The notes beneath the pieces were generated by a model. The model did no database searches. It was not told the DNA's origin and was given only the letters and a program-made list of their open reading frames with translations. Below are positions 17,961 to 50,533 of a DNA stretch of 64,000 nucleotides, in pieces (positions within the stretch are counted from its first letter, which is position 1; each line of letters opens with the position of its first letter). This stretch comes from a candidate division WOR-3 bacterium (GTDB lineage Bacteria; Hydrothermota; Tepidihabitantia; SM23-42): assembly GCA_027026255.1 (NCBI GenBank), contig JALVOT010000008.1, positions 11,619 through 75,618 on the forward strand, written 5' to 3'. Position numbers and translations under genes: made by a program.

Positions 17961-18275
17961 GCATAAAGAGACTCTTTAATAAATCTTTTAAGAATTCTCA
18001 CAACCGATTTTTTTCTTGTAATGGCCATAAATAAAACCATACTTACTATATAAAACAATCTTCAGCGTATAGCAATTAAAAAGGCAGTTATTCGGCTGCG
18101 GCATCCATATAAAAAATCAGAGATAAAAGATATTTTAATTAAGTCGCACAGTTTTTTCTGGAAGGGTGTAAATTACCGGACGCTTATTCTGGATGTTCTG
18201 CGCAGCAGGGTGCGATGTTTAAAAAATCTTCTCCAGAAGGGTCAAAGAAATCTGATTAAATTCTGGATAATTGGT

Positions 18276-18337
18276 GTTTAACGGGGGGGGCAAAACACCT
18301 GAACGAGTTGCAAATATTGTATTGCCCGCTGTTATCT
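18276..18337 (-). repeat. attC-like imperfect inverted repeat (62 nt)
   Basis: Minus strand reads AGATAAC-A-GCGGGCAA-28 nt-TTGCCCCCCCC-GTTAAAC. It overlaps the stop codon of the methyltransferase ORF. Confidence 0.4.
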
Positions 18338-19246
18338 TTTCCTTAAAGTAATCCACAAAGTTTTAACTCCTAAGTCTTCAAATGAGTAATTGGTTTTAAA
18401 TCTATCGGCCAATCGTAGTCGCTTTAAGATTTCTATATCTGTATGACCTGGCTTTTTTACTTTTTGCTCGACAATCTCGAATCCTGATTGTTTTATTACA
18501 CTGATATAGTCTGGATAACGCAGTCTATTCTGAAAATGGATAGAGGAATTAAGCACTGACCATGTTTTTTCAGAAAATGTGAGGAAATTATAGCAGGAAA
18601 TGTTTTTATCAAAATATGAGTAATGGTCTTTTAAATCAATTAAGCAACTCACAATGCCTTTTGGTTTAAGAATTCTGTAGCATTCTTTGAGTATCTTTAT
18701 GATATCATTTTCGGGTATATGTTCAAGGGTTGCAGTACTTGAGATGAAATGAAACGATTCTGATGAAAAGGGTGTGTTCCGGGCATCTATTGGAGCAAGC
18801 CAGCGAATACCGAATATTTTAAATAATTCTGAGACATCCTTAATTTTTACTGAATTCACTCGAATCCGGTTATCTATAAGTGATTCTACTTTTGATTTAT
18901 GCTTTGATAATCTCGATATACTATCATTTACTAACTCAAGGCGTAAGTTCTGTCGAATGTCAATGAGTGTCTGATGTTCGACGCCAAAACAATAGTAGGC
19001 AAGGGGAATGATTAAATCCCAGCCTGCTCCGAATTCATAGAATTGAGCATCAGTGAGCCTTATACCCGAACAATATTGGGGAAAATTATTGAAATGTCTC
19101 TTTGCAATTTCAACCTTTCCTAAGAAACGTTTATTACTGATAGGAAGATTTTTTGTGATATTCCGCTGAAAAAAGTAGTTCCAGGTTTCGCTCCCTGGAA
19201 GATGACTGAAAATCTGTTGTAAAACCGCTTTAGCAATAAATTTCAC
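18332..19246 (-). CDS. class I SAM-dependent methyltransferase
   Basis: 304-aa ORF with EFGAGWD (motif I-like) and LKPKGIV. GTG start. Confidence 0.7.
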   Translation of the reverse strand: MKFIAKAVLQQIFSHLPGSETWNYFFQRNITKNLPISNKRFLGKVEIAKRHFNNFPQYCSGIRLTDAQFYEFGAGWDLIIPLAYYCFGVEHQTLIDIRQNLRLELVNDSISRLSKHKSKVESLIDNRIRVNSVKIKDVSELFKIFGIRWLAPIDARNTPFSSESFHFISSTATLEHIPENDIIKILKECYRILKPKGIVSCLIDLKDHYSYFDKNISCYNFLTFSEKTWSVLNSSIHFQNRLRYPDYISVIKQSGFEIVEQKVKKPGHTDIEILKRLRLADRFKTNYSFEDLGVKTLWITLRKR

Positions 19247-19333
19247 TTGCTATTCTTTCAATAACAGTATTTATATTTATTCAATCAACTCTCATTTATC
19301 TGTCTTACAAGCACTTTGGGTAATGCTCGGCGG

Positions 19334-19439
19334 CTATGAGTAATGGCGGGATTTTCCGCACTCACTTTCATTTTTGCGTTGCCGTTTGTTTTATTCATAT
19401 TTATTCCAGTATTAACACTTTGCCCGCCGTTACTCATAG
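19334..19439 (+). repeat. structured repeat, copy A (17-bp closing stem, ~70-nt AU-rich interior); homologous to 50430-50533
   Basis: CTATGAGTAATGGCGGG ... CCCGCCGTTACTCATAG. The single non-Watson-Crick pair is G.U only on this strand. About 75% identity to the reverse complement of copy B. Confidence 0.6.
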
Positions 19440-19458
19440 CCTTTGTTGGCGGTAGTAA

Positions 19459-20427
19459 TTATAATTTTACTATTTCAACTCGTCTGTTTTTTGCTCTTCC
19501 TTCATCTGTAGAATTTGTAGCTACAGGTGCTGCTTGTCCGACACCGTACGCTTTTAACTGTTCAGCTTTTACAGAATATTTTGATATCAATTCATTTACA
19601 ACAGCTTGTGCTCTTTCCATTGATAATTTAATATTAGCATCAAAGTCGCCTGTGTTGTCTGTATGTCCTACAATGACAAATTTCTTGTCAGGATGATTTT
19701 TGAGATAGCCTGCTATTACCTTGAGAGTTTCATCTGATTCCGGTTTAATATCTGCTTTACCCGGATCAAAAAGAATACTGTAGATTGAGATATGACCATA
19801 AGTAGCTAAGTTTTCGTCAATATTATGAGCATTTAAAATATCTTCCCTATCGGCTTCCATAACATCCTGTGTAATAAGTGTCTTGTCAGAAAATCCTGAT
19901 ATGTAGATGACTGTATAAATGTTTTTTTCTGCACCCGGTTTGCGGGCGACTATGAAACAATGTGTGTCTTCACCGCGTGGATAATATTCAAGCCCAAACT
20001 GTCCGGTCATTTTGTTACCATAGTAATAGTTGCAAAAATCTTCTGAATTACAACCAATGCCATCGATACCTTTGCCTTTGACTAAGATTGTGAAACCGTT
20101 TTTCTTTAGATTGTCAAGTAAAGTTTTATATAAATAAGCAGGATTATTTTCGGCCGGGGTTGTGTACTGATATCTAATCAACCTACCTTCTGTCTTAAGC
20201 ATGTGAGGAAAATACCTGCCTCTGTCTTCCTTGTATGTGAGCTTGGTCAGAGGAACATTATATTCCTGCCATTTAAAGACTTTGTAGAATTTAAGGTCAG
20301 AGCCTGGGAAACGTTGGATTAAAGGATAGTCCTTAGAGCCTTTTACATCATTATTTTGTGCAAAAAGATTTGTGGAAAACATTAATGCAACTACTGCTAA
20401 AATTAAAGTTACTTTTTTCATTTTCAA
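19459..20427 (-). CDS. OmpA-family protein (C-terminal OmpA/peptidoglycan-binding domain)
   Basis: Signal peptide present. C-terminus reads GHTDNTGDFDANIKLSMERAQAV...GRAKNRRVEIV. Confidence 0.85.
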   Translation of the reverse strand: MKMKKVTLILAVVALMFSTNLFAQNNDVKGSKDYPLIQRFPGSDLKFYKVFKWQEYNVPLTKLTYKEDRGRYFPHMLKTEGRLIRYQYTTPAENNPAYLYKTLLDNLKKNGFTILVKGKGIDGIGCNSEDFCNYYYGNKMTGQFGLEYYPRGEDTHCFIVARKPGAEKNIYTVIYISGFSDKTLITQDVMEADREDILNAHNIDENLATYGHISIYSILFDPGKADIKPESDETLKVIAGYLKNHPDKKFVIVGHTDNTGDFDANIKLSMERAQAVVNELISKYSVKAEQLKAYGVGQAAPVATNSTDEGRAKNRRVEIVKL

Positions 20428-20465
20428 ATCTCCTTTTATTTAATGTTTATTTTCGGTTTTATTAC

Positions 20466-20547
20466 CACCAACCTTTTGCGTATTTGCGAAGTACCGTAGG
20501 CATTTAAGTGAGTACCAAAGGGGCGAACTGCAAACACGCTGTTAGAC
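20466..20547 (-). repeat. attC-like imperfect inverted repeat (82 nt)
   Basis: Minus strand reads GTCTAAC-A-GCGTGTTTGC...GCAAATACGC-AAAAG-GTTGGTG. It starts 24 nt after the stop of the 75-aa ORF. Confidence 0.4.
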
Positions 20548-20571
20548 AATAGTAGGGACACTTATTTTTCA

Positions 20572-20799
20572 CTATTTGTCCCAGGTCATTTTGATCTTAC
20601 TAATTTGAGTTTCGCCTCCGAGGACATTCCCTTCATTATCAATTCTTATTTTGTCAATGCCGCCGATCTCTTTTCTGAAATCAGTTATGATGTCCCGGTG
20701 AGGTTCTTCTACCCAATTATCAAAATCATTGGGAATCTTCAAACCATCCTTGAAACCTTTTAGATAGTCGTCAATAGCTATGATTTCACCTCCTTTCAT
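20572..20799 (-). CDS. hypothetical 75-aa protein (partner of the nucleotidyltransferase; not HEPN-like)
   Basis: ORF 49 nt downstream of the NTase gene. No Rx4H motif. Confidence 0.45.
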   Translation of the reverse strand: MKGGEIIAIDDYLKGFKDGLKIPNDFDNWVEEPHRDIITDFRKEIGGIDKIRIDNEGNVLGGETQISKIKMTWDK

Positions 20800-20848
20800 T
20801 TATTTTTCCATCCAGTCTGGCAGATATTTATCCACCAGGCTCTTGAAG

Positions 20849-21157
20849 TTAAATGTTTCGTTTTTTTTGTAGAATAACCTTTTGTTCGTTCAGTATTCGT
20901 TTTTTAAGTAGAGGATGAATAGATTTATAAGTAATAATATCCACTTCCCTTCCCAACAGTTTTTGAAGCTTTAACTTCATACCCATAAGGTCTAATAGAC
21001 TTTTTCTCCCTTCAAATTCAATTAGCAAGTCTATATCGCTATCTTTGGTGACTTCTCCTCTTACTATCGAGCCCAAAAGAGCAGTTCTTTTCACCCTGTA
21101 TTTCTTTAATACTTTAATAAGTGTATCTTTTATTTCTTTAATCTGCTCGCTATTCAT
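20849..21157 (-). CDS. MNT-type nucleotidyltransferase-domain protein (antitoxin-like)
   Basis: LLGSIVRGEVTKDSDIDLLIEF matches the GS...DxD minimal NTase motif. Confidence 0.8.
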   Translation of the reverse strand: MNSEQIKEIKDTLIKVLKKYRVKRTALLGSIVRGEVTKDSDIDLLIEFEGRKSLLDLMGMKLKLQKLLGREVDIITYKSIHPLLKKRILNEQKVILQKKRNI

Positions 21158-21186
21158 ATTTTTTAGCTTCCAGGGCAGGGTTCGGG

Positions 21187-21365
21187 ATTTCGGACAACTC
21201 GTTCATATCCGTAATATTACGAATATACATCCCTCTGGGTGAAATTATACTCCTTTCTTCTTTATCAACCATTATAGAATAAATATATAGCAAAAAAACA
21301 AAAAGTCAAGACCATTTTCAGAAAGTTCTCTTTGGAGGTCTTAAAAAAAGTTGCCGAAGGCGATT
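21187..21365 (-). repeat. junction repeat copy 1 (terminator hairpin + promoter module + L-motif)
   Basis: Minus strand carries AATCGCCTTCGGCAAC-T7, AAGACCTCCAAAGAGAACTTTCTGA, TTGACT-16-TATATT and the L-motif with hairpin 21205-21226. Homologous to 22921-23028 and 24478-24682. Confidence 0.7.
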
Positions 21366-21407
21366 GGGGTGAGCGAACCAGATGCCCGCTTGTTGTTTTA
21401 TGCACGG

Positions 21408-22541
21408 TTAGGATAAAACCTTAAAATATACTATAAAACCATATATGATTCCTTCGGTTAAAAGAAAGTAAGGGATGGAATATTGGTGGAAACTTAACCA
21501 TAATTTTTTATTTTTTGCTATTCTTAAGGCAATAATATTTGCTAATGAGGAGATTATTAAACCATTTCCACCAACATTTACCCCATATGTTATTACCTGC
21601 CAATTGTGCGTAAATTTCGAGATAAGCACAGTTGCTGGAACATTACTAACTACTTGAGATGTGAATACTGATACCAAAAATACATTATTTGCAGAGTTTA
21701 AATTTAGCGCATTAATAGTTTTTGATACTATTGATGCAGTGGAAATAATATGAAAATCAATGAAAATAATTATAAAAAGTAACAATAATGCCCAATCTAC
21801 TTTCGCCAATACTTTGCTGTTATATATAATATAAATTGTAAAAATAACTGGTAATATCCAGATGGCTAATCTCAACTCTAAAAAGATAATATAAACTAAT
21901 AGCATTGCTGTAGATAAAATTAACAGTGGTTTTTTGAATGCCTTACTGTTACTTATATCTTCTGAAACTTTTATCTTTTTGTCAGAGAAAACAATCCAGG
22001 CAAATATTAAAAGAATTAAAAGAAGAAAAATAACTAATGGGAACATCTTTATGATAAATGTAATAAAAGAGATATTCCATTTGTGCCATAAAAATATATT
22101 TTGTGGGTTGCCAATTGGTGTTAAGGAAGAGCCTATATTAACAGAAATGGTTTCAAAAATTATTAACTTAGAAATGTCATTTTCTATTATGTTTTGAATC
22201 CCGATGGTTAATGGAATAACTACAAAAAGCGTGATGTCATTTGTAAGAAATGTGGACAGTAATGCTGAAAAGATTATTAAAAAAAATGAAAGAGATTTTT
22301 CGGTTCCCATTTTTTTTATTATTTTTTCAGACAGGGTATCAAAAAACTTACTTTCTTTTAGTCCCGTGGTAATTATAAGCAATCCTGTAAGTGCTATTAT
22401 TGTTCTCCAATCAATAAAGTAAGGATAATTGATTATTTGATGATGGTATACAATAGATAAAATAATAAGTAAGATAACGAATATAGATAAAATAAATTCT
22501 TTTTTTACAATCTTAATTATCCCCATTTTATACACAATCAC
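21408..22541 (-). CDS. ArsB/NhaD/CitMHS-superfamily anion or cation permease
   Basis: 377-aa polytopic ORF with the IGNPQNI motif. Confidence 0.7.
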   Translation of the reverse strand: MIVYKMGIIKIVKKEFILSIFVILLIILSIVYHHQIINYPYFIDWRTIIALTGLLIITTGLKESKFFDTLSEKIIKKMGTEKSLSFFLIIFSALLSTFLTNDITLFVVIPLTIGIQNIIENDISKLIIFETISVNIGSSLTPIGNPQNIFLWHKWNISFITFIIKMFPLVIFLLLILLIFAWIVFSDKKIKVSEDISNSKAFKKPLLILSTAMLLVYIIFLELRLAIWILPVIFTIYIIYNSKVLAKVDWALLLLFIIIFIDFHIISTASIVSKTINALNLNSANNVFLVSVFTSQVVSNVPATVLISKFTHNWQVITYGVNVGGNGLIISSLANIIALRIAKNKKLWLSFHQYSIPYFLLTEGIIYGFIVYFKVLS

Positions 22542-22920
22542 CTTTTATATAACATCTCGTGTGTATTTAAAGTTACTGAAGACAATTTGGGTGAGGATTG
22601 AATACCAGAACCAGATACCTGTTTGTTAAACGACAGCAGAGGTCTTTCATAGTATTATACGTTCCTTAATACTCATTTTTTGGTCGTAAATCCTAACCTA
22701 AAACTTTTGTGGGTGTCGTTAGTATCAAAATAGTTTTGGATTTTACTGGCTCCAGTTCCTCCGATTTTTATCAGAATAGTCAAATAAAACTCTTGAGATC
22801 CTGCTTGATGGGCAAAGTGAATCTTATTTTGGAATCCTTTCACCTTCCACCTGGCTCTATCTTTTACTTCCTTTATTCATTAAGTGGATACACCTTGCTC
22901 TAAGCGAAAACATATTTTTT

Positions 22921-23028
22921 CCTCCTTTATCAAGCATTATGCAATAATATAATAGCAAAAAAACAAAAAGTCAAGTCCGTTCAGAAAGTTCTCTTTGGAG
23001 GTCTTAAAAGAAGTCGCCGAAGGCGATT
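22921..23028 (-). repeat. junction repeat copy 2 (terminator hairpin + promoter module)
   Basis: Minus strand carries AAATCGCCTTCGGCGACTTCTTTT, then TTGACT (22974-22969), 17 nt, TATATT (22951-22946), then GATAAAGGAGGAA. Confidence 0.7.
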
Positions 23029-23097
23029 TAGAAAAATCTTTTCTGCCTGTCGGCAGACAGGGATTTCCCTTTTATCCGCTGTTAGGTGAGGTCGCTT

Positions 23098-23406
23098 TCA
23101 ACTTTTCACCACTTGTATACCCATTATCTTAACGCCATCTGTTGTTCTCATCGATAATGTTGTAGGTTCGGTAATTAGACACTGTCCCTCTTTAAGATTC
23201 ACTATTTCTTGATTAGCCCTTACTTCTGCTGTCCCTTTAATAACATAGAAAATAACATAAGAAGTCATTTCGCAAGTTGGCATCTCACCACCGGCCGGAA
23301 GCTCAATAATTCTTAGTTTAAATTCCTTAGCTTTATAGAAAACATTCTTATCCCGTTCCTCATACGGATATACTGCCATTGTTTTGATATCAAAAACTTG
23401 CATCAT
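23098..23406 (-). CDS. cupin-domain protein
   Basis: About 102 aa counted from ATG 23406, which is preceded by AGGAGGTGAAG. Small beta-barrel-like sequence. The track start at 23445 overlaps the upstream gene more extensively. Confidence 0.6.
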   Translation of the reverse strand: MMQVFDIKTMAVYPYEERDKNVFYKAKEFKLRIIELPAGGEMPTCEMTSYVIFYVIKGTAEVRANQEIVNLKEGQCLITEPTTLSMRTTDGVKIMGIQVVKS

Positions 23407-23959
23407 CTTCACCTCCTGAGACTTGTTTTTTACAGCTCCATTCAATTAGTTGTTCTATAGATACTCCCATTATTATAACAAAAACAATTGTTAAAATAAG
23501 TCTTGCTGCCATAAATTTTGGCCCAAGGAATTGAAGTTCCACCATCTCTTGAGGGATTTTTATGCATGCCCAGGCAGAAAGGAAAACAATGATACAGGAT
23601 ATTTTGGCGCCTTTTTTAAGTAAAGTAGAAGCTATAGGAAAAGCCACATATAGAGGGCCTGTAGGCAGTGACCCCAACAATATTCCGAGAAAAACGCTCT
23701 TTATTCCAGCAGCTTTTCCCAGATATTTTACAACCATATTCTTAGGCATAAATACCGCAAAAAGTCCCATCAATACCAGAACAGCAGGGAGTATTGAAAT
23801 CATTTCAATAAAGAATTTCAATGATGTATTAGTTACTGCTTTTTGTTTGTCAGGAAAAATTGAGAGTAAAATTACTGTAATAAATAAAGTGAGTCCAAGA
23901 ATGATTACATCTCGTTTCATTTCCTTTCTTTGAGTTTCTTTTTCTACAGGTTCTTTCAT
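23390..23959 (-). CDS. permease, C-terminal half of a split UPF0718/ArsP-like permease
   Basis: 189-aa polytopic ORF with a 4-nt overlap with the upstream half. Confidence 0.55.
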   Translation of the reverse strand: MKEPVEKETQRKEMKRDVIILGLTLFITVILLSIFPDKQKAVTNTSLKFFIEMISILPAVLVLMGLFAVFMPKNMVVKYLGKAAGIKSVFLGILLGSLPTGPLYVAFPIASTLLKKGAKISCIIVFLSAWACIKIPQEMVELQFLGPKFMAARLILTIVFVIIMGVSIEQLIEWSCKKQVSGGEDDASF

Positions 23960-24438
23960 AGTATCACTCCCATGATGATGCCAATAATAATTGCAATTAC
24001 AAAACTTATTCCATTTCTGAGTAAAGCTATTTTCTTTCCCAATTCTTTTATTTCTAAAGGTAGTGTAACTATACCAATCATAGTTAAGGTAGTAATAAAT
24101 ACTGCAACCGAGGTAACTGATGTCCCGTTTTTGAGGAGAGATGCTGCTAACGGAAAGGAAATTAAAGAAGGGATATGCAAGAATGCTCCCAATGATGCTA
24201 CAATAAGCACTCCTCCAAAACCTGCCTGCTCACCAATGAGTTTAGAAATCTGACCTTGCGGTACGAAACCTAAAAGCAGTCCTATAAAGATTATAATAAT
24301 AAGAACAGTGGGAAAAATACGAAAGAATGACTTTAATGCTCCGGTTAATGCCTGTTTTGTTTTTGTTCGTTCCTTAATAAACGCAAATATTAAACAGCCA
24401 AAAGCAAAGACATTTATAAGTATGGCAGTTGTATTCAT
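23956..24438 (-). CDS. permease, N-terminal half of a split UPF0718/ArsP-like permease
   Basis: 160-aa polytopic ORF. AAGGAGG RBS. Confidence 0.55.
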   Translation of the reverse strand: MNTTAILINVFAFGCLIFAFIKERTKTKQALTGALKSFFRIFPTVLIIIIFIGLLLGFVPQGQISKLIGEQAGFGGVLIVASLGAFLHIPSLISFPLAASLLKNGTSVTSVAVFITTLTMIGIVTLPLEIKELGKKIALLRNGISFVIAIIIGIIMGVIL

Positions 24439-24477
24439 GGAATATTCCTCCTTACATTTGAACTCATATATCTATCA

Positions 24478-24682
24478 ATGTCGCCTAACTCCTTCATATA
24501 CGAACAGTTCGCATATCCCTGTCTGTGTGTGGGTACGCACAGGCAGACATCCTTCTGGGTGAAATCATACTCCTTCCTCCTTTATCAAGCATTATGTAAT
24601 AATATAATAGCAAAAAGACAAAAAGTCAAGTCCGTTCAGAAAGTTCTCTTTGGAGGTCTTAAAAGAGTTTCCTGAGGTGATT
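24478..24682 (-). repeat. junction repeat copy 3 (promoter module + L-motif carrying a 30-nt hairpin insertion)
   Basis: Same module as copies 1 and 2. The L-motif ends in GAGTTAGGCGACAT (GTTAGGC is the complement of 24483-24489), 44 nt before the permease ATG. Confidence 0.7.
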
Positions 24683-24741
24683 TGGGTAAGGGCTGAAACT
24701 TCGAATTAGATACATCGTGTTATGCGATATGCTGATTTTTT

Positions 24742-25095
24742 TTATTTTCTTCGTGGTCTGAGAAGACCGCCAAAAATTCCACCTACCAGACCAAGAAATC
24801 CAAAGTAGAGTGTAGAGATAAAGACACCGCCGCCAATTACTGCACCCAGGATTCCTCCTAAAGCTGCGCCCTGAAAACCACCAAGAATATTCCCTAAGAA
24901 ACCGCCAATAGTTGTGAAAATAATGCCTGCAAAAATTCCATCGATTGTTCCGCTCAAAAATCCAGCTAATATACCTCTTCCTATTCCACCGGCAATTAAA
25001 CCAGCGGTAAAACCAGCAATGATGGGGCCGAGTATCGGGATAGGACTCAATACTGCCATTGCAATGGCCCCGATAATAACCCCTAAAACTAACAT
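24742..25095 (-). CDS. glycine-rich small membrane protein
   Basis: 117-aa ORF built from GxxxG-type repeats and hydrophobic segments. Confidence 0.6.
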   Translation of the reverse strand: MLVLGVIIGAIAMAVLSPIPILGPIIAGFTAGLIAGGIGRGILAGFLSGTIDGIFAGIIFTTIGGFLGNILGGFQGAALGGILGAVIGGGVFISTLYFGFLGLVGGIFGGLLRPRRK

Positions 25096-25877
25096 AATGA
25101 CCTCATTTTTTCAGGCATTTCGCCTAACGGTTTAGCAAACTTTGGTTGCCACACGAAGTATCCATCTTGATAGATTAATCTTTGATTGCTGTCCGGGGAT
25201 TCTCTGAATCGCAATGTGTCCGGATTACCGTGGACGGAAAAATACTTCATAGCAGATTGCTGTTTTTGGCCCCTGAAATCATCTATCCGACCCCTTTTCA
25301 TTGTTGTGTTCTCTGTTTCAGGGCGCCAGTTATTATTCCATAAGAAATATAAGCAGCCGTCCTCGTCGGTATTGATTTCTCCATCCTAATCAACACAGGC
25401 AAAATATAAAGCACAAAAGATTGAGGATGTAATATCTATCATTTTTGTCCCAACCTCATCATCATAATGTGCCATCAAAGACCACCAATTAGGGTCTTCT
25501 TTCTTTTTTCTTGTTTGAAAAAGCCATTTAATCTTTGAATTTATGTATTTCTTCTGAAATGCCTTAAGGTATTCTATTTCGTCCGAAGTTATATTTAGTG
25601 GATTAATATCGTTATGCTTCAATCCGGTATTTCGTACAATTCTTGGTATTAGTTCCCAACCATAGATATGTTCTCCCCGAAAAAATATTGGTTTTACGCT
25701 TGAGCCTTCATTCATGAAACTTTTAATACCGGAAGTTTTTAATAATACCTCTCCACATGAACTTATATAGCAATTACCATTACACCCTGTCGATAGTTGC
25801 TTATCATCACGGGTCAGTTGCCGCCAAGAAACGCAGCGAATTGGCGGCAACTGACCATATTGTTCAGGTTTTTTCAT
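25089..25877 (-). pseudogene. FRG-domain protein gene interrupted by one in-frame TAG (25386-25388)
   Basis: FFRGEHIYGWELIPRIVR and WWSLMAHY...IDITSSIFCALYFA are FRG-like. The same frame stays open after the TAG for 98 more codons, down to 25092. Confidence 0.6.
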
Positions 25878-26020
25878 TATAGTATTCCATAAACATCTTT
25901 GTCAGTGGATTGTGAGCTTTTGTCAGAGAGGTACCAAATAATCCCCAAAATTTCTCTGACCGCGTTTTTTTTAGGGAAAAACTCATCAGGTTTTTGAATC
26001 ATCTCTTTGTCTTTTCTCAT
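25877..26020 (-). CDS. hypothetical 47-aa ORF
   Basis: Below the track size cutoff. ATG 26020; its TAA overlaps the FRG ATG (TAATG). Confidence 0.3.
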   Translation of the reverse strand: MRKDKEMIQKPDEFFPKKNAVREILGIIWYLSDKSSQSTDKDVYGIL

Positions 26021-26074
26021 TAGCGGAAGACAGGCTTCTATTATTCCCTCTTGTCAGGACCTGTCTTTATTTCA

Positions 26075-26599
26075 TTACTCTTTTCTTTTTTTACTCTTCT
26101 CTTGCACAAGTCTTTTGATTTCATCCAGATGCCCAAGTTCGAATTCTTTTTTCGGTTTCGGTATCTGTTCCAGTACGGCATTTATTGCTTCTTCCGCTTG
26201 CTTTGCCGTCCGTGGATTTATCGCTTTCTGCTTAACTAAATCCTGAATGGCCTGTACATAGATGTATCCGCATCTATGGGCGCTTGGATTAAAGAGTTTT
26301 ACACAAGTTGTTTGGTCACAACATGCTTGAACTATAGCTGCATCCGTAAAGTGATTGGCGTGGTAAACAAACCCTGGCTTAACGATCCAGAACGACCATA
26401 CTGCTTTTAGGTAATAACAGCCAGGGGGAACTTCAACTTCAAGGTGACCACATTTGGCAGGTAAAACTACGTACTTCTTACCGCACCACTGGAGTACATT
26501 ACCATCGCAGTCATAGATGGTAACATACCATGTCCTTTTATCAACACTACAGGGATCGTCAATCCCTGAAATCCAGATGTTAAGTTTTGCCATTCCCAT
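26075..26599 (-). CDS. Cys-rich hypothetical protein (12 Cys in the first ~125 aa, Lys/Glu-rich tail)
   Basis: 174-aa ORF with a GGAGG RBS. No recognisable family. Confidence 0.6.
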   Translation of the reverse strand: MGMAKLNIWISGIDDPCSVDKRTWYVTIYDCDGNVLQWCGKKYVVLPAKCGHLEVEVPPGCYYLKAVWSFWIVKPGFVYHANHFTDAAIVQACCDQTTCVKLFNPSAHRCGYIYVQAIQDLVKQKAINPRTAKQAEEAINAVLEQIPKPKKEFELGHLDEIKRLVQEKSKKRKE

Positions 26600-26683
26600 T
26601 TTTTTTTCCTCCTTTTAATTAAATTCCAGGAAGTTCCGGCCACAAGAACTCCCTTCAAAAAAGAACTATATATACAAAAGTTA

Positions 26684-26863
26684 TCAATTAGTACAACAAA
26701 CTATTAGTCCTAAGCAGAATGCTTTAACTCCACGATCTGCTTTTTCGACAGTAAGCTGGGGTAATTCCCTTATCTGTTGAGCTAACGCAGCCTCAATTTG
26801 TGGTGTTGATCTAATTTGTAGCACGTCTTCCAAAGCCACTTTTTTTTCTTCTTTTCCAGGCAT
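26684..26863 (-). CDS. 59-aa peptide with a helical leader-like region and hydrophobic C-terminus AFCLGLIVCCTN (candidate RiPP precursor)
   Basis: ATG 26863 lies 5 nt after AAGGAGGTGA, which overlaps the end of the radical SAM gene. Confidence 0.55.
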   Translation of the reverse strand: MPGKEEKKVALEDVLQIRSTPQIEAALAQQIRELPQLTVEKADRGVKAFCLGLIVCCTN

Positions 26864-26868
26864 TATTA

Positions 26869-28257
26869 TCACCTCCTTTCGTGGCCATTAGATTGAATTT
26901 TTTTTCTGCAGCCGGGCGGTGTTCCAAAAAAGTCATTTTTGCTATAATACGCCCTTAAACGACACATTTTTAAATCGCAACTATTTACAAAAGAACAATT
27001 GCTGCATTCTGAAAGATTACTTAATTCTACCGAACCTCTAAATAATTCCCAGGAATCCAATTCCCAAATTTCTTTAATTTCATTTTCCTTGGTTGAACCC
27101 ATAGCAAAATGATTATCATGAAAGGCATAAACACAGGGGAAAACGATACCATCAGATCTTATTGCAAGTCTTGTAGTTCCAGCAGTGCAAAAAATCCTAC
27201 TATTTTTTAAGGGTTTTAAATCTTCATATTTTGGTTCATATGGATTTAAATAACCGATGTAAATTTTTCCCTCAAAATGATTTTTTAGTTTATCTATGGA
27301 ATTTGAAATGTTATTAATATCAGAATTTTCCAACAAAAATTCTTTATGATTTTTTGCTCTTCCGAGAGCATCCAACACTAAGAAATTTATGGATTCAGCG
27401 CCTATAGAATATGCTAACTCTGCAATTGATTTTAATTGATGAATATTTTTTTTATTAACAGTTGTTGCAATATGGAATTTTGCACCTGCTTTTGATAAGA
27501 GTTCTAAACCATTAATTACCTTGCGGAAACTATCAGGCCCCCTTAACAATTCATGTGTTTCACAATTGGCTCCGTCTAATGAAACTGTCGTTGAGAAATT
27601 AGGCCGTGAAAGAAGTAATGCTAATGATTTATCAATTAGAGTTCCGTTAGTCAGTAATTCTATTCTTATTCTTTTTTGAGCTAAATAATCTATTATTTCT
27701 CCTGAACCGGGATACAGCAACGGTTCACCACCTGAAATTGCTATTCTATATGTTCTTAGTTTTTCAAACTGATCGAATATATTTAGCCATGAAATAAGCT
27801 CAAGTTCGTTATCTAATTTTTTGCCAGCTTTATAAATACAGTGTTTACAATAAAGGTTACAAGCTCTTGTGAAGTGAACTTCAGCCTCATATGGAGTTGA
27901 TGTGACAGGGACGTAGGATTTAATAGAGGTTAATTCAAAATCAGAAATATTTTTTGAGTTTTGGAAATTATCTGTAAGTATCTCAGAAGGATTAAAATGT
28001 TTACTAATAACCTTAATTATATCCTTAACAGTTATTTCTATTCCTCTTTGAGAGCAAAATGAACAAATTTGTTCAAAAGAAAGATAATTATTCTCAAATA
28101 ATTTAAGTATTAAAAATAGTGTTAGACTAATTTTATACTTTTCAGCAGTATCAATATTAAATGCTAAGTAAGGAGTATGGAAATATGGATCATTTCTGAT
28201 AATCCAACGATCAGATAAAGTATATGGTTTATTTGCTGAGAGAGAAAACGATTTCAT
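26869..28257 (-). CDS. radical SAM/SPASM-domain peptide-modifying enzyme with an N-terminal RRE/PqqD-like region
   Basis: CNLYCKHC (Cx3Cx2C), GGEPLL, and a C-terminal Cys cluster (CTAG...FPCVY...CSNCSFVNSCDLKMC) typical of SPASM. Confidence 0.8.
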   Translation of the reverse strand: MKSFSLSANKPYTLSDRWIIRNDPYFHTPYLAFNIDTAEKYKISLTLFLILKLFENNYLSFEQICSFCSQRGIEITVKDIIKVISKHFNPSEILTDNFQNSKNISDFELTSIKSYVPVTSTPYEAEVHFTRACNLYCKHCIYKAGKKLDNELELISWLNIFDQFEKLRTYRIAISGGEPLLYPGSGEIIDYLAQKRIRIELLTNGTLIDKSLALLLSRPNFSTTVSLDGANCETHELLRGPDSFRKVINGLELLSKAGAKFHIATTVNKKNIHQLKSIAELAYSIGAESINFLVLDALGRAKNHKEFLLENSDINNISNSIDKLKNHFEGKIYIGYLNPYEPKYEDLKPLKNSRIFCTAGTTRLAIRSDGIVFPCVYAFHDNHFAMGSTKENEIKEIWELDSWELFRGSVELSNLSECSNCSFVNSCDLKMCRLRAYYSKNDFFGTPPGCRKKIQSNGHERR

Positions 28258-28556
28258 ATATTAATGTTTATAGTATCGATTGGACTAACTGTTTTCCCCG
28301 GACTCTTTCTGCTTATATAGGAATAAAACTTATTTATATTACTGCTTTTATGCTCCATTAGGTTCCATATCTTTCCAGAAATCATTCTTACTTCTTTTAT
28401 CAACCCCTTATCATAAGGAATTTGAATTATAATTTCATCATTTTCCTCAAGCGCAATCTTCACAGCAGTTATTTTGCCTGTTTGTACCGTCTTCACGGCA
28501 GACAGGTCTTCCCTTACCATTTTATAAAACACATTCTGTTTTTTTATTATATTCAT
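28254..28556 (-). CDS. hypothetical 100-aa protein (segments resemble the N- and C-termini of tyrosine recombinases)
   Basis: Carries IQIPYDKGLIKEVRMISGKIWN and a C-terminal SPID. 4-nt ATGA overlap with the radical SAM gene. Confidence 0.45.
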   Translation of the reverse strand: MNIIKKQNVFYKMVREDLSAVKTVQTGKITAVKIALEENDEIIIQIPYDKGLIKEVRMISGKIWNLMEHKSSNINKFYSYISRKSPGKTVSPIDTININI

Positions 28557-28614
28557 ATTCTATTCCTATCCTTTCCTTACAATTTCCAGTTCCAGCACTT
28601 TAATATATGATACT

Positions 28615-28642
28615 ATTATATTCATATACACGAGTCTGTCAA
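28615..28642 (-). promoter_or_regulatory. sigma70-type promoter of the radical SAM operon
   Basis: Minus strand reads TTGACA (28642-28637), 16 nt, TATAAT (28620-28615), followed by a 58-nt leader. Confidence 0.55.
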
Positions 28643-28686
28643 GGCCTGATTTTGCCTGGTCTGGCAGGTTTATTGATTAATCAGTA

Positions 28687-30666: not shown

Positions 30667-30840
30667 CCGAAGGATTTCTTCGGTAGACCGGGGATAGGTC
30701 TCCTGGCTTATCCACCCTTAATCAACCTTCCCATTCTGTCTTGTAGAACAGTGGTTTTCTATGATTAAGGTATCTACTGGAATCACAGTGGCGGCGACCG
30801 CGGCCGATTTTCACGGCGCTTCCCTTGAATCCACCAGCCG
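30667..30840 (-). promoter_or_regulatory. cobalamin (B12) riboswitch
   Basis: Minus strand carries GGTGGATTCAAGGGAAGCGCCGTGAAAATCGGCCGCGGTCGCCGCCACTGT, GGGAAGG, and the B12 box AAGCCAGGAGACC. Confidence 0.85.
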
Positions 30841-30844
30841 ATAG

Positions 30845-30872
30845 ATTATATTCAGATAATAATAACTGTCAA
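30845..30872 (-). promoter_or_regulatory. sigma70-type promoter of the riboswitch-btuB unit
   Basis: Minus strand reads TTGACA (30872-30867), 16 nt, TATAAT (30850-30845). Confidence 0.6.
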
Positions 30873-30882
30873 CCCATTCACC

Positions 30883-31069
30883 TGGGGTCAAATCTTCACA
30901 ATTCACAAACCTGTATAGGCGACATACCATTAACTCGTCAATCGTAATTGATATTGCTACTATACTGATAAAATATCTCGCAACAACGCCGTAATAACTC
31001 CATCATCAGAATACAATTTAAACTGGAATAAATCAAACATTAATTGTGAATTGTGAAGATTTGACCCCA
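30883..31069. repeat. 187-bp element with perfect 26-bp terminal inverted repeats (MITE or invertible segment)
   Basis: TGGGGTCAAATCTTCACAATTCACAA at 30883-30908 and its exact reverse complement at 31044-31069, with a 135-bp interior. Confidence 0.8.
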
Positions 31070-47016: not shown

Positions 47017-47088
47017 AGCGGGTGACGGGATTTGAACCCGCGACCCTCGGCTTGGGAAGCCGATGCTCTACCACTGAGCTACGCCCGC
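47017..47088 (-). tRNA. tRNA-Gly (anticodon CCC)
   Basis: Manual cloverleaf: GCGGGCG...CACCCGC (one C-A mismatch), anticodon stem TCGGC/GCCGA with loop TTCCCAA, T-loop TTCAAAT. Confidence 0.85.
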
Positions 47089-47183
47089 AAATCTTAAAAA
47101 TTATATACCAAATATTTTGATTGTCAAGGCAGGGTTCATTCAGAGCTGAATCTCAAAATAGTATAAAGGATTGAACCCTGAGA

Positions 47184-47498
47184 TTATGGTATCGGCGAGA
47201 CAGGGAATCGGTGAATTTATGATTAAAAAAGCCAGATAAAATTTTAAATTAATCATCCATCCCTTGACAAAGGGTGGCGGTTGAATATACTCTGGATATG
47301 GAGAGAGGAATACTGAACATTGGAGATTCAGGGTATAGCTTTGCTACTAAGTTTTTAAAATCAGGGATGGATTTAGGATATATTCAAGAACTATTGGCAT
47401 ACAAAAATTGCAGAACAACTGAGGTTTATACCTGTGTAAATAAAACAAATCTTGCAAAAATTGAGAATCCTCTTGATAGGCTGATGAAGGAGAAATGA
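47184..47498 (+). pseudogene. decayed tyrosine recombinase/integrase gene (C-terminal remnants only)
   Basis: One frame reads LWYRRDRESVNL*...*...*QRVAVEYTLDMERGILNIGDSGYSFATKFLKSGMDLGYIQELLAYKNCRTTEVYTCVNKTNLAKIENPLDRL. Compare the integrase motifs HSFAT..L..G.D...IQELLGH....TT.IYTHV....SPLD.L. It has three in-frame stops and altered catalytic H residues. Confidence 0.6.
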
Positions 47499-47559
47499 GT
47501 ATGATTTCACCCAGAAGTATCTATATCCGCATTGCGGATATAGATGAGTTAGGTGACAT
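47497..47559 (+). repeat. L-motif copy (homologous to 21187-21254 and 24478-24576)
   Basis: GAGTATGATTTCACCCAGAAG, an 11-bp perfect hairpin (47520-47544), then GATGAGTTAGGTGACAT. Homology to the other copies stops at 47559. Confidence 0.7.
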
Positions 47560-47609
47560 GCAGAAAAACAGTAAAATAAAAAAGGAGTTAATAAAAAGGA
47601 GTTAATAAA

Positions 47610-49751
47610 ATGGTTGATATAAAAGAAGGACTTACCCAAAAGCCAGTGATAAGTAGAATCCTTATTGATTTTTTCAAATCAAAAGAAGACTTTGATGGTA
47701 AACTATATATTGGCTATCCAATACTGTATAGTGGCGAAAATAGTATAGTGATCGATGCTTTATGGATTTCCAAGAAATATGGGATAATTATATTTGACTT
47801 AATTGAAAAAGAACAAGATTGTAATGATTATGCTAAAAGACAAGACCTTATATACTCACAATTAGATTCATTACTGCGGGCATATCCCGACTTAAAAAGA
47901 GGCAGAAAAGAACTTTTGGTAAACATAGAACTTTTAAGTTTTGCAAGCAATTTATGCAAAACAGATTTTGACAACTATATTGTTTCTTCAGAAGAGGATT
48001 TAAATAAGTATCTTGGACAAAAAGTACTAAATTGGGATAGTAGTTATTTGTTTGATAAGGTTTTATCTATAATTCAATCTGTTGTTAACTTAAAAAAGAA
48101 AACTAAAAGAAATATCATTAATCCAAATTCTAAGGGAGGTATATTAAAAAATAAATTAGAACCAACCATTGCTACTTTAGATAGAAATCAAGAAGAAGTG
48201 GTGATAAAATATTTTGATGGTGTACAAAGAATAAGGGGATTAGCAGGTTCTGGTAAAACAATTGTTTTGGCTTTAAAAGCGGCTTATTATCATTCTTTAT
48301 TTCCAGATTGGAATATTGCTGTGACATTTAACACACGTTCACTCAAAGATCAATTTAAAGATCTTATTACGCGATTTGTAGTAGACAAAAAACGTGAAAT
48401 GCCAGATTGGTCAAAAATAAGAGTCGTAAATGCGTGGGGGAGTCCCAAAGATAAAGAAGAAGAAAAAGGACTTTACTATGATTATTGTATTTCAAACAAT
48501 ATTGAATATTTTGATTTCAGAAAAGCAAAAAGTATTAATAAAAATAATCCTTTTAGAGTTGCTTGCAAAAATGCCTTAGAGAAATCACCTTCTCATATAA
48601 ATGAAAAATTTGATGCTATTTTGATTGATGAGGCTCAAGACTTATCTGTTGAATTTCTTCAAATTTGTTATAATTTTTTAAAAAAGCCAAAAAGATTAAT
48701 TTATGCTTATGATGAATTACAAAAGTTAAATGAAGGTGAAGCATTGCCAAATCCAACTAAATTTCTTCCGATTGAAGAAAATGATTATGATGATAGAATT
48801 TTAAAAATATGCTATCGTAATTCAAGACCTATATTAGTTACAGCACATGCATTAGGATTTGGTATTTATCGAGAACCCACTACAAGAGTAGATGGATTAA
48901 AAACTGGATTAGTCCAGTTTTTTGATCAACCCCGTTTATGGCAAGATGTTGGATATGAAAAAGAGGAAGGAGAATTTAAAGCTGGAGAAAGAATAGTACT
49001 TACAAGAACGGAAGAATCTAGCCCTAAATATCTAGAAGATCATTCGCCAATAAATGATTTATTAGTTTTTACACAGTTTAGAAATAAAAAAGAGCAAGCA
49101 GAATGGGTGGCAAATGAAATAGAAAAAAATCTAAAAGAAGAAGAACTCTCATATAAAGACATAATAGTTATTAACCCGATTGCCTTAACCACAAAAGAAG
49201 AAGTTGCTTTAATTAGAAATACTTTATTACAAAAAGGTATAAACAACCATATTGCAGGTGAATTTAATGCTGATATATTTTTCCAGGATAAGTCAATTGC
49301 ATTTACCGGAATAAATAGAGCGAAGGGAAATGAAGTTCCAATGGTATATATTATAAATGCACAAGATTGTTATTCATCATCTTTATTTAATGAACGCGAT
49401 TTGAGAAGACTGCGAAATATTTTATTTACTGCAATTACTAGAAGTAAAGCATGGGTTAGAGTTGTCGGAATAGGAAATAAAATGCAATCTCTTATTAATG
49501 AATTTAATAAGATAAAGAAAAATAATTTTAAACTTAACTTTATTTATCCATCAAAGGAAGAGATTGAAAGGATTAATATAATTCACAGGGATATTACAAA
49601 AGAAGAAGAAAGGAAACTAAAACGAGATGTAGATACTCTTAATAATTTAAAAGATATTGTAGAAAGTATTAAAAATGGTAAAACATTTATTGAAGATTAT
49701 CCAGTTGAAGTGCAAAAGATAATCAAGCTATTAATTGAAAAATTGGACTAG
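47610..49751 (+). CDS. NERD-like N-terminal domain fused to an SF1 (UvrD/DUF2075-like) helicase/ATPase
   Basis: 713-aa ORF with GYPILYSGENSIVIDALWISKKYGIIIFDLIEK, then Walker A GLAGSGKT, Walker B ILIDEAQD, CYRNSRPIL and LFTAITRSKAWVRVVG. Confidence 0.8.
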   Translation: MVDIKEGLTQKPVISRILIDFFKSKEDFDGKLYIGYPILYSGENSIVIDALWISKKYGIIIFDLIEKEQDCNDYAKRQDLIYSQLDSLLRAYPDLKRGRKELLVNIELLSFASNLCKTDFDNYIVSSEEDLNKYLGQKVLNWDSSYLFDKVLSIIQSVVNLKKKTKRNIINPNSKGGILKNKLEPTIATLDRNQEEVVIKYFDGVQRIRGLAGSGKTIVLALKAAYYHSLFPDWNIAVTFNTRSLKDQFKDLITRFVVDKKREMPDWSKIRVVNAWGSPKDKEEEKGLYYDYCISNNIEYFDFRKAKSINKNNPFRVACKNALEKSPSHINEKFDAILIDEAQDLSVEFLQICYNFLKKPKRLIYAYDELQKLNEGEALPNPTKFLPIEENDYDDRILKICYRNSRPILVTAHALGFGIYREPTTRVDGLKTGLVQFFDQPRLWQDVGYEKEEGEFKAGERIVLTRTEESSPKYLEDHSPINDLLVFTQFRNKKEQAEWVANEIEKNLKEEELSYKDIIVINPIALTTKEEVALIRNTLLQKGINNHIAGEFNADIFFQDKSIAFTGINRAKGNEVPMVYIINAQDCYSSSLFNERDLRRLRNILFTAITRSKAWVRVVGIGNKMQSLINEFNKIKKNNFKLNFIYPSKEEIERINIIHRDITKEEERKLKRDVDTLNNLKDIVESIKNGKTFIEDYPVEVQKIIKLLIEKLD

Positions 49752-49752
49752 T

Positions 49753-50409
49753 ATGAGTATTAAATCTGAAATACTAAGAGAAATAAGAAGTATTACAACA
49801 TCTTTAGTTGAGAAAAGTATAATTATCGACCAAAATTGGCCTAGTGAAAAAAATGGTGAAATTGTATGGGATAATTATAAAGGACTCGCTTTTTCTTTAC
49901 AAAATGAACCTTATGAAACAATTTTTGATCAATGCAGAAAAGAAAGAGATTTTAACTTTATGCTCATTGACGGAAGTCTAATTCAATTACAATATCGCAT
50001 TAAGGGGAATAATTTAATAGAACATATTTTACGATTCTTACCAAATCCTTCATTCGAAAAATATCAGGATAATCCGGAAGAGTTTGAAGAATTATATTAT
50101 GGTATTGAATTGTTTACAAATATATTAGATAAAAAAACTATTGTTTTCCCAATACGATTTGACTTCTCAAATATTCATAAAGAAATATTGCATCCGAAAG
50201 TCCACGCAACTTTTGGTAATTATAAAGATTGTAGGATTCCAATTTCAAAACCTATAAGCCCCAAAAGATTTGTTTCATTTATATTAAGAAATTTTTACAA
50301 CTACAAATTTATAGATTCTGGTATAGAAAGTCAGTTAATTTCCAGCATCGTATTTGAAGAAGATATTGCAGATAATGAAAAGAAATTGATACATCTTGCA
50401 TATGATTAA
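49753..50409 (+). CDS. hypothetical 218-aa partner protein (size and position fit DUF2290; unverified)
   Basis: ATG 49753 lies 1 nt after the helicase TAG. No motif I can name. Confidence 0.6.
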   Translation: MSIKSEILREIRSITTSLVEKSIIIDQNWPSEKNGEIVWDNYKGLAFSLQNEPYETIFDQCRKERDFNFMLIDGSLIQLQYRIKGNNLIEHILRFLPNPSFEKYQDNPEEFEELYYGIELFTNILDKKTIVFPIRFDFSNIHKEILHPKVHATFGNYKDCRIPISKPISPKRFVSFILRNFYNYKFIDSGIESQLISSIVFEEDIADNEKKLIHLAYD

Positions 50410-50429
50410 AGCACAAACGCCCGATATTG

Positions 50430-50533
50430 TGTATGAGTAATGGCAGGCAAAGTATCAAAAATAAAACATATGTGAATAAAATAAACAGTAGTGCAAAAAT
50501 GAAGGTAAGTGCGGAACCCGCCACTACTCATAC
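50430..50533 (-). repeat. structured repeat, copy B (homologous to 19334-19439)
   Basis: GTATGAGTAATGGCAGG...CCCGCCACTACTCATAC. The two non-Watson-Crick pairs are G.U only on the minus strand. It lies 20 nt after the stop of the upstream ORF. Confidence 0.6.

Follow-up and report, generated by a model that had tools for sequence, protein, structure and literature searches.

Island between OsmC and btuB

The DNA analyzed here, referred to as the window, is a 64-kb stretch from a candidate division WOR-3 bacterium, in which a block of co-oriented genes lies between the genes for OsmC and btuB. Assignment to WOR-3 is also indicated by DnaE and the genes around it. An earlier reading of these letters (the original prediction) had taken positions 18276 to 25128 for an array of gene cassettes resembling an integron or a cluster of attC sites lacking integron-integrases (CALIN), wedged between the two flanking genes. 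In the closest genome that we found (L001; 81% amino acid identity in DnaE), btuB follows OsmC after 19 nt. Positions 17961 to 28686 of the window therefore represent an insertion relative to L001. The predicted placement was thus correct, but the true extent of the island is larger, comprising 10.7 kb, with the whole stretch on the minus strand. As had been proposed, every open reading frame (ORF) between 18332 and 25095 is encoded on this strand, and the domains assigned by Pfam showed that the functions of the modules are unrelated. Beyond the modules that had been recognized previously, the island also holds an FRG gene, a gene for a 174-aa protein, a radical SAM/SPASM gene with a 62-aa peptide ORF, and a 100-aa ORF. 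The genes and gene relics of the island are given below in reading order, followed by a second relic platform elsewhere in the window.

28615-28642, minus: promoter-like TTGACA-16-TATAAT, 12 of 12 consensus positions, upstream of the recombinase relic at the array head
28254-28556, minus: relic recombinase gene h100, 100 aa (phmmer, tblastn)
25089-28257, minus: proximal cargo (Pfam), absent from L001, without a match to the attC model R1 described below
26869-28257, minus: radical SAM/SPASM enzyme (Pfam)
26684-26872, minus: 62-aa Cys-rich peptide ORF, ending CLGLIVCCTN
26075-26599, minus: Cys-rich 174-aa protein
25089-25877, minus: FRG-domain gene with an in-frame TAG (Pfam)
24742-25095, minus: cassette ORF for a DUF5518-like Gly-rich membrane protein (Pfam, E = 4e-5, below the cutoff)
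23098-24438, minus: cassette with two ArsP_1 half-permeases and a cupin (Pfam)
21408-22541, minus: cassette for a CitMHS/ArsB-NhaD-type permease (Pfam PF03600, E = 1.7e-37)
20572-21157, minus: nucleotidyltransferase (20849-21157) beside a 5'-truncated cassette with a 75-aa ORF (20572-20799) (Pfam)
19459-20427, minus: cassette for an OmpA-domain protein (Pfam PF00691, E = 2.4e-22)
18332-19246, minus: cassette for a class I SAM methyltransferase (Pfam)
17961-18275, minus: non-coding tail of the insertion, reaching the OsmC stop codon, absent from L001
47274-47560, plus: second relic platform, a 74-aa C-terminal recombinase fragment followed by an attI-like site

The 100-aa ORF, h100, is the remnant of a recombinase gene. 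Approximately 66 N-terminal residues, which make up a HARP-like extension, are fused to a degenerate C-terminal part of about 34 residues (LMEHKSSNINKFYSYIS..SPID); the entire core-binding domain and most of the catalytic domain have been deleted. By phmmer, residues 21 to 66 matched residues 24 to 69 of a related recombinase, L042 (E = 1e-10), and residues 63 to 96 matched its residues 339 to 372. Searching with 26 full-length relatives by tblastn yielded a match at 28272 to 28544. The promoter-like sequence upstream may act as a promoter, as suggested by its position only, since the promoter scan overall found no more sites than chance. The second relic, a 74-aa C-terminal fragment (47274 to 47498), adjoins a tRNA-Gly gene and was recognized by Pfam (PF00589, E = 1e-5) and by tblastn with E values down to 9e-16. 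The original prediction had reported no integron integrase. This holds for intact genes, as tblastn with full-length relatives detected no intact recombinase of the h100 type in the window, but the two relics are present.

The second platform (47089 to 50560; GC, 28 to 33%) lies beside tRNA-Gly(CCC), which is located on the minus strand at 47017 to 47088. It comprises, in this order, the 74-aa fragment, the attI-like site, a 713-aa UvrD-like helicase, a DUF2290 protein, and a long attC-like site at approximately 50410 to 50550 that is homologous to the site at the OmpA junction. The helicase and the DUF2290 protein matched the PADLOC models PDLC03002 (E = 5.5e-258) and PDLC02999, respectively.

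Recombinase relatives and their associated sites

Relatives of the relics were collected by back-translated searches, yielding 80 loci from many bacterial and archaeal phyla, with the family reaching Firmicutes-type metagenome-assembled genomes (MAGs) and Paenibacillus. About half of the loci contain a full-length gene, encoding 350 to 480 aa; recombinase genes occur in multiple copies and are often decayed. Nine of ten scored relatives achieved 227 to 261 bits with NF040815, the XerA-type model named "site-specific tyrosine recombinase/integron integrase" (cutoff, 220 bits), and the remaining one, L037, was just under the cutoff at 209.6 bits. With the integron integrase model TIGR02249, the ten relatives scored 212 to 227 bits in two stretches, below the cutoff of 265. 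The best match in the Protein Data Bank was VchIntIA (2A3V), in which 66 residues hold the IntI-specific domain; L042 has 24 residues at this place. This additional domain, the I2 helix region around patch III, is absent in the full-length relatives, the recombinase core of which aligns contiguously with XerA (5HXY). Pfam assigned Phage_int_SAM_4 and a weak HARP-like N-terminal match.

A 43-aa query from the recombinase C terminus matched at least 200 proteins in the protein database, and the 120 listed, from many phyla, were all 38 to 76 aa long. Such a search may favor short targets, which makes an excess of C-terminal fragments uncertain: either truncated platforms are very common or the result reflects this bias. 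At loci L027 and L028, such C-terminal fragments are immediately preceded by a promoter-like stretch and followed by an attI-like site and cargo (e.g., ThsB-TIR); L028 contains two such fragment units 2.2 kb apart within an array. No description of this recombinase and site family was found in the literature that was searched, and absence there is no proof of novelty. Its archaeal contigs were not found in the part of the supplements of Ghaly et al. (2022; PMC9668308) that was consulted.

The stop codon of the recombinase gene is directly followed by one to three AT-rich palindromes with covarying arms and then by GAAC(G/A)AGTTAGGCGA(C/A)AT. About 30 loci from many phyla contain such an attI-like site, ending in GTTAGGC, downstream of the gene. 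Two contigs of one Spirochaetota MAG (L095 and L104) are 99.7% identical through the gene and the attI-like site and diverge right after GTT. Six contigs (L043, L049, L070, L076, L088, and L094) end 1 to 2 nt past GTT, and in 24 of the 80 loci the contig ends no more than 400 nt from the stop codon, in two cases within the ORF. We attribute contig ends just past the recombinase gene to the effect of a hypervariable junction on assembly. From 28 foreign loci, a sequence model of the attI-like site, R3, was built. At L064 (10270 to 10345), the attI core is immediately followed by GTTAAGCAAAATG...CATTTTGCTTAAC and then by a short AAC...GTTAGGC element, which could be an empty or minimal cassette site.

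A second type of site, 65 to 170 nt in length, occurs in co-oriented arrays downstream of the recombinases. It begins with YTAAC-A-GCGG and consists of YTAAC (R''), one base, the L'' box, a variable center (CCCAAAT and a small hairpin), CTTC, the L' box, a one-sided spacer of 4 to 5 nt, and GTTA (R'). This layout was strictly matched 60 times among the relative loci. In 33 aligned sites, 96% of the L helix was paired, and 10 of its 11 pairs showed compensatory changes; the paired fraction in slid controls was 27 to 43%. A single nucleotide on the 5' side faces the 4 to 5 nt on the 3' side, and all of the 11-bp L box is paired, without extrahelical bases. Reference sites of the family folded into the expected shape (z = -8.5 and -4.0). 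In L095 and L104, the common cassette blocks start and stop exactly at the GTT of R'. On the Dehalococcoidia contig L053 (5122 to 10357), one attC is located on the recombinase strand and six further downstream are on the opposite strand; part of this array appears to be inverted.

The 33 sites, all of which stem from other organisms, served to build a covariance model, R1. Over 1.09 Mb of loci, it produced 76 matches, many of them outside the training set; 75 lie downstream of a recombinase and 70 are co-oriented with it. R1 had no matches in eight WOR-3 control loci and none at class 1 integron cassette junctions. As a proxy for a canonical model, R2 was derived from 8 validated archaeal attCs. 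It found only 1 to 2 of about 7 class 1 sites and is therefore too insensitive for its silence on the window to mean much.

Junction sites in the window

The sites at the junctions of the island are as follows, again in reading order.

25116-25128, minus: possible 5' boundary of a cassette, GTTAGGCGAAAT (R3 weak, E = 2.3)
24661-24725, minus: truncated attC with R'' GCATAAC (24719-24725) and the central CCCAAAT kept, 3' arm replaced by U1
24477-24660, minus: long junction repeat U1 (repeat family, promoter scan, homology to the 3' end of the 74-aa relic, R3)
23006-23087, minus: truncated attC with R'' ACCTAAC (23081-23087), then AGCGGATAAAAGGGAAATC, 3' arm replaced by U2
22880-23005, minus: U2, with box (22980-23005), promoter-like stretch (22946-22974), and degenerate recombinase relic
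22547-22631, minus: full-length eroded attC (R1, 26.3 bits, E = 0.0027)
21343-21413, minus: truncated attC with R'' TCCTAAC (21407-21413) overlapping the stop codon, 3' arm replaced by U3
21186-21342, minus: U3, with box (21317-21342), promoter-like stretch (21282-21309), recombinase relic, and attI-like site
20466-20547, minus: best-preserved attC (R1, 39 bits, E = 4.6e-6, full model length)
19318-19451, minus: long-type attC with R'' CGCCAAC and a 19-bp L stem (fold z = -3.3)
18276-18337, minus: short terminal attC-like site with R'' AGATAAC, L'' GCGGGCAA, L' TTGCCCCC, and R' GTTAAAC

Running an attC-type model over the junctions had been suggested as a check, and with the family model R1 the outcome was positive. 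With filters off, R1 produced ten matches with an E value of 10 or less in the window, and five of these, including the top three, were at minus-strand junctions of the block. In addition to the sites at 20466 to 20547 and 22547 to 22631, partial or weak matches were obtained at 23006 to 23042 (20.5 bits, E = 0.05), 18276 to 18337 (13 bits, E = 2.3), and 21348 to 21378 (10.1 bits, E = 10); R1 did not match at 24661 to 24725. The two sites with E values below 0.01 are 2.1 kb apart, the CALIN test being at least two attC within 4 kb, and are accompanied by five partial, weak, or homologous sites.

Several of these sites can be read element by element. The best-preserved one consists of R'' GTCTAAC, L'' GCGTGTTTGC, the central TCAC..AAAT, L' GCAAATACGC, the spacer AAAAG, and R' GTTGGTG; its L stem forms in the fold, with an unexceptional energy. 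The site at 22547 to 22631 ends in GTTATAT, 21 nt ahead of the likely CitMHS ATG, and folds no better than its shuffles; the 250 nt upstream (22632 to 22879) contain no convincing ORF. Over its entire length, the long-type site at the OmpA junction can be aligned with long attCs from Bacteroidales loci (L077, L086, and L087), and its R' is ATTACCC, with the crossover G mutated to A. At the cupin junction, the 5' half shares exact matches of 23 to 25 nt with attCs of L069, L064, and L053, and the site carries a 19-nt palindromic insert. The terminal site is present in identical form in a second sample (L021). Several window sites carry changes at bases that do not vary in the family, with GTTG and ATTA for GTTA and CAAC for TAAC.

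The small GC-rich palindrome that interrupts the cupin-junction attC (CCTGTCTGCC...GGCAGACAGG, 23042 to 23061) resembles sequences in the U1 leader (24505 to 24545) and in an attC of an Altarchaeum locus (L040, 9620 to 9660). It may belong to a family of miniature inserted hairpins.

All six inverse-core boxes of the form RYYYAAC that had been listed after the modules were found at their positions and coincide with the 5' ends of attC-family sites. Only two of the six are strict fits to the motif, which is not enriched in the window (82 matches versus 116 expected). Five of the boxes begin sites that are backed by R1 or homology, and GCATAAC is assigned by comparison with the family consensus alone. 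The extension that three of them were said to share also stood: TAACAGCG occurs four times (0.93 expected), three times just after stop codons in the block, and corresponds to the conserved R''-L'' start of family sites.

The repeats U1 to U3 occupy three junctions at spacings of 1655 and 1665 nt. Each contains a 28-nt invariant stretch (a 26-nt box and 2 flanking bases), followed by TTGACT-17-TATATT. In U1, the box (24635 to 24660) and the promoter-like stretch (24601 to 24629) are followed by about eight final recombinase codons and a stop (approximately 24557 to 24595), and then by an attI-like palindrome and the core GAGTTAGGCGACAT, with GTTAGGC at 24483 to 24489. A fourth copy of the 3' half of U is located on the plus strand at 47479 to 47560, where it represents the last codons of the 74-aa ORF by the tRNA-Gly gene. 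Because this copy encodes the end of a recombinase, U1 to U3 each keep about 8 terminal recombinase codons and about 70 nt downstream of them. At all three junctions, the attC ends after CTTCTTTTA, and the U unit then stands in place of L' and R'. The original prediction had named these long, promoter-bearing junctions as a weakness. They are indeed long, but they can be explained as a truncated attC joined to a promoter-like stretch and a recombinase relic, with an attI-like site in U1 and U3. All U copies have one identical deletion and promoter fusion in common, which makes them copies of a single relic, not independent scars. Internal cassettes are probably transcribed from these units.

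The U box was not found by exact matching, either as the 26-mer in genome contigs or as a 22-mer from within it in metagenome contigs. A 19-mer from the recombinase-relic part had five matches, which were rejected as unrelated chance matches. None of the fetched relative loci contains an equivalent of the box and promoter part. With Rfam, the block had no matches at either the gathering or the E ≤ 1 threshold, and U is therefore not a known riboswitch or leader. A leader peptide was rejected as the small ORFs of U1 to U3 are not conserved, and tandem duplication of a 1.66-kb unit was rejected as the genes between the U copies are unrelated.

R3 matched the window at U1 (24477 to 24519, E = 5.7e-10), at U3 (21186 to 21227, E = 2e-6), and at the 47.5-kb copy (U4; 47521 to 47560, E = 4.3e-6), spanning E values of 6e-10 to 4e-6. 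The core of the last site is GAGTTAGGTGACAT (47546 to 47559), with GTTAGGT at 47548 to 47554, and that of U3 is GTTGTCC (21192 to 21198). In U2, neither a recognizable attI core nor an R3 match was found. Three GTTRRRY cores had been proposed ahead of modules, and all are present. Based on the R3 matches, two of the three (24483 to 24489 and 21192 to 21198) are situated within attI-like sites; the third, GTTAGGC at 25122 to 25128, has a weak model match only. It lies within the 3' end of the FRG gene, 27 nt ahead of the DUF5518 start, and the sequence from 25116 to 25128 agrees with the attI core and cassette start in L063 and L108.

The FRG gene itself has a single in-frame TAG (25386 to 25388); the frame continues to 25089, overlapping the DUF5518 start (ATGTTAG), and its final 12 codons lie beyond a GTTAGGC core. 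It is a pseudogene, contains a sequencing error, or is read through.

The nucleotidyltransferase and the 75-aa ORF had been regarded as a toxin-antitoxin-like pair, which they probably are not. A homologue of the 75-aa protein from another metagenome (L113; 88% amino acid identity) has an intact family attC 25 nt past its stop codon (67.6 bits) and a different small ORF as its upstream partner. At the DNA level, homology to L113 extends from the nucleotidyltransferase stop codon to the R'' box (20849 to 20540; 81% identity) and stops at R'', not at R'. In the window, homology to the 3' end of the L113 partner is limited to about 42 nt (approximately 20808 to 20849), which suggests that the nucleotidyltransferase was juxtaposed by a deletion. 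Searching the 80 family loci with the cargo proteins of the window produced no more than a weak match for the nucleotidyltransferase, inside the L063 array.

As for the surroundings, neither a target duplication nor an att-like core was found at the island borders. There is no tRNA gene at either border of the island (17961 to 28686), and the repeats inside it are U units, not tRNA fragments. The radical SAM/SPASM enzyme and the 62-aa ORF look like the maturase and precursor peptide of a ribosomally synthesized and post-translationally modified peptide. A cobalamin riboswitch (30680 to 30864) precedes btuB, and just upstream of it is a perfect 26-nt inverted repeat (30883 to 30908 and 31044 to 31069) with the arms 135 nt apart. 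A 27-nt direct repeat, AAAACGCTTCGCGGTACAAAACGCGCT, occurs at 50706 to 50732 and 61720 to 61746, 11 kb apart, with 93% identity.

Interpretation as a probable decayed cassette array

We consider it highly probable, at roughly 85%, that the block is a decayed array of cassettes belonging to an integron-like system for gene capture. The integron- or CALIN-like interpretation proposed at the outset is thereby supported, with the amendment that the array extends to 28.7 kb, is fossil, and represents a non-canonical and apparently widespread family. In its intact form, as observed in relatives, such a system has an IntI/XerA-type tyrosine recombinase at the array head, reading toward the array; in this protein, a HARP-like extension at the N terminus precedes the core-binding domain (Phage_int_SAM_4) and the catalytic domain, and the IntI-specific insertion is lacking. 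New cassettes would join after the GTT of the attI-like site directly downstream of the recombinase gene, and each cassette closes with an imperfect palindrome from R'' YTAAC to R' GTTA. To judge from the sequences, the recombinase would act on these sites, possibly as folded single strands. In the platform between OsmC and btuB, the recombinase gene has collapsed to the 100-aa fusion of its N- and C-terminal parts, and three composite U copies have replaced the 3' arm of three attCs. Seven attC-family sites are left, three of them truncated and the others mutated at otherwise invariant positions or deprived of their stems. Given eroded sites and no intact recombinase in the window, the array looks frozen, and this copy presumably has no activity without a recombinase from another part of the genome.

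Several observations weigh against this interpretation. Only two window sites reach an R1 E value below 0.01, and three of the four full-length sites fold no better than shuffled sequences, with only the OmpA junction standing out. Pairing of L'' with L' was used to select the training sites of R1, and the paired fraction is consequently partly circular. No attC could be detected with R1 in the proximal 3 kb or so (25.1 to 28.2 kb). Different L boxes accompany the 75-aa gene and its L113 homologue, which is not predicted if a cassette is inherited together with its attC. Comparisons within the lineage itself comprise the absence of the whole island (L001) and one identical short contig (L021), and neither shows gain or loss of a single module. 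With regard to folding, energies alone would wrongly refute the attC assignment, which is why homology and model matches are needed.

The proposed array shares its overall organization with co-oriented chromosomal integrons, both the "inverted" Treponema type and the archaeal ones (Ghaly et al. 2022, PMC9668308), in which a recombinase heads co-oriented, unrelated small cassettes and attI is located beside the recombinase gene, downstream of it in archaeal examples (PMC9668308). Cassette ends are likewise imperfect palindromes with outer AAC...GTT boxes, paired inner boxes, and a G|TT crossover, and FRG, nucleotidyltransferase, cupin, methyltransferase, and TIR proteins are also cargo of archaeal integron cassettes (PMC9668308, Data S7). 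Unlike integron integrases, the recombinase of this family lacks the IntI-specific insertion near patch III, scores below the integron-integrase cutoff, and carries an extra HARP-like N-terminal domain. Its sites differ from validated canonical attCs in that a one-sided bulge of 4 to 5 nt replaces the two-sided unpaired spacer and no L-box bases are extrahelical.

These differences bear on the possibility that the block is a canonical integron remnant, that is, a CALIN with standard attCs and a classical IntI encoded elsewhere, beside which the Xer-like relics would be incidental. Such a remnant would account for the AAC...GTT boxes, the L boxes, the cassette-like cargo, and the GTT breakpoints, all of which are classical integron features, and attI immediately downstream of intI has also been reported for archaeal integrons (PMC9668308). 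As in CALIN defined by IntegronFinder (PMC4889954), several attC-type sites lie within a few kilobases, cassettes are co-oriented, and no intact integrase is nearby. Unlike those of CALIN, however, the window sites are detected only with a family-specific model, several are truncated and fused to other sequence, and recombinase relics and attI-like sites are still recognizable. We regard a canonical remnant as unlikely. Both relics and all full-length relatives are without the IntI insertion, and this recombinase type, the attI-like site, and the attC family are linked in dozens of loci. The bulge (1 nt versus 4 to 5 nt) and the fully paired L box without extrahelical bases do not fit either, R1 is silent at class 1 cassette junctions, and the nine validated archaeal attCs are laid out differently, with TAACAA.T. 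and a 5-nt spacer (PMC9668308).

Tandem accretion of integrative islands, in which a phage-type integrase would have targeted the 3' end of a resident integrase gene and left the U units as attL/attR scars, is very improbable. Each U does keep a 3' fragment of the recombinase gene, in the way that tRNA-targeting islands keep tRNA 3' fragments, the second relic adjoins tRNA-Gly, and short C-terminal recombinase ORFs appear very common in the protein database (the 120 listed of 200 were all shorter than 77 aa), an excess that is uncertain given the possible preference of the search for short targets. Against accretion, the identical deletion and promoter fusion point to descent of the U copies from a single relic, the modules contain no other mobile-element genes, and attC-family sites at cassette ends are not predicted. 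We can hardly uphold a generic island of independent operons, in which U1 to U3 would be duplicated regulatory regions of a regulon and the boxes would occur by chance: their promoter-like site and 28-nt invariant stretch could be an operator, RYYYAAC is not enriched, and most junction folds are unremarkable, but U1 and U3 show homology in their 3' halves to a recombinase gene end and attI-like site, the 5' halves of the junctions are tied to a foreign attC family both by the model and by near-identical 23- to 25-mers, the first island gene is a recombinase relic, and comparable matches do not occur at similar rates in unrelated intergenic DNA.

With regard to the XerA and XerC/D chromosome-dimer resolvases, the recombinase core resembles XerA, aligning contiguously with it and passing the NCBIfam XerA-type model. 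In contrast to Xer/dif modules or integrative mobile elements exploiting Xer (IMEX), the family has structured sites of 65 to 170 nt in direct orientation instead of a 28-bp dif with two 11-bp arms and a 6- to 8-bp spacer, and the junction sites of the window (62 to 140 nt) also differ from Xer/dif in architecture. Unlike genes for Xer resolvases, the recombinase genes are multi-copy and often decayed, contigs break just past them, and the proteins carry the extra N-terminal domain.

More tentatively, and with a probability well short of even, the recombinases related to both relics could constitute an undescribed integron-like lineage in which the HARP-like domain replaces the role of I2 and promoter-plus-attI units are mobile. 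Integron function is currently linked to the I2 insertion of IntI, to which the change from recombining double strands to recombining folded single strands is attributed (PMC4792948 and PMC7790495). In such a lineage, the HARP-like N-terminal domain may take over from the I2 helix of IntI in recognizing DNA structure. The partners of recombination would be an attI-like site and attCs of a distinct class, folded with a bulge on one side only and lacking extrahelical bases, and units of the U1 to U3 type could be cassette-like mobile elements that restart transcription in long arrays. A related arrangement is found in class 1 and 2 mobile integrons, where attI or attI remnants occur inside arrays in the place of attC (Gonzales Machuca et al. 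2026, PMC12901181). Like these delta-attI-type cassettes, the attI-like sites of the window are internal to the array, between cassettes; unlike them, they bring along a promoter-like stretch and the last recombinase codons and replace the 3' arm of the preceding attC.

If true, a large cross-domain family that assembles cassette arrays in the manner of integrons, with GTT crossovers, a different site geometry, and an additional N-terminal domain but without the I2 insertion, would bear on the origin of integrons, as an intermediate or as an independent solution. Tools that rely on the IntI domain and on the canonical attC model may then miss a sizeable share of cassette arrays, possibly including those in WOR-3 and Firmicutes-type genomes. 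For the present organism, the 10.7-kb strain-specific island and the second island at 47 to 50.5 kb would be explained as the frozen remains of gene capture, consisting partly of candidate defense genes.

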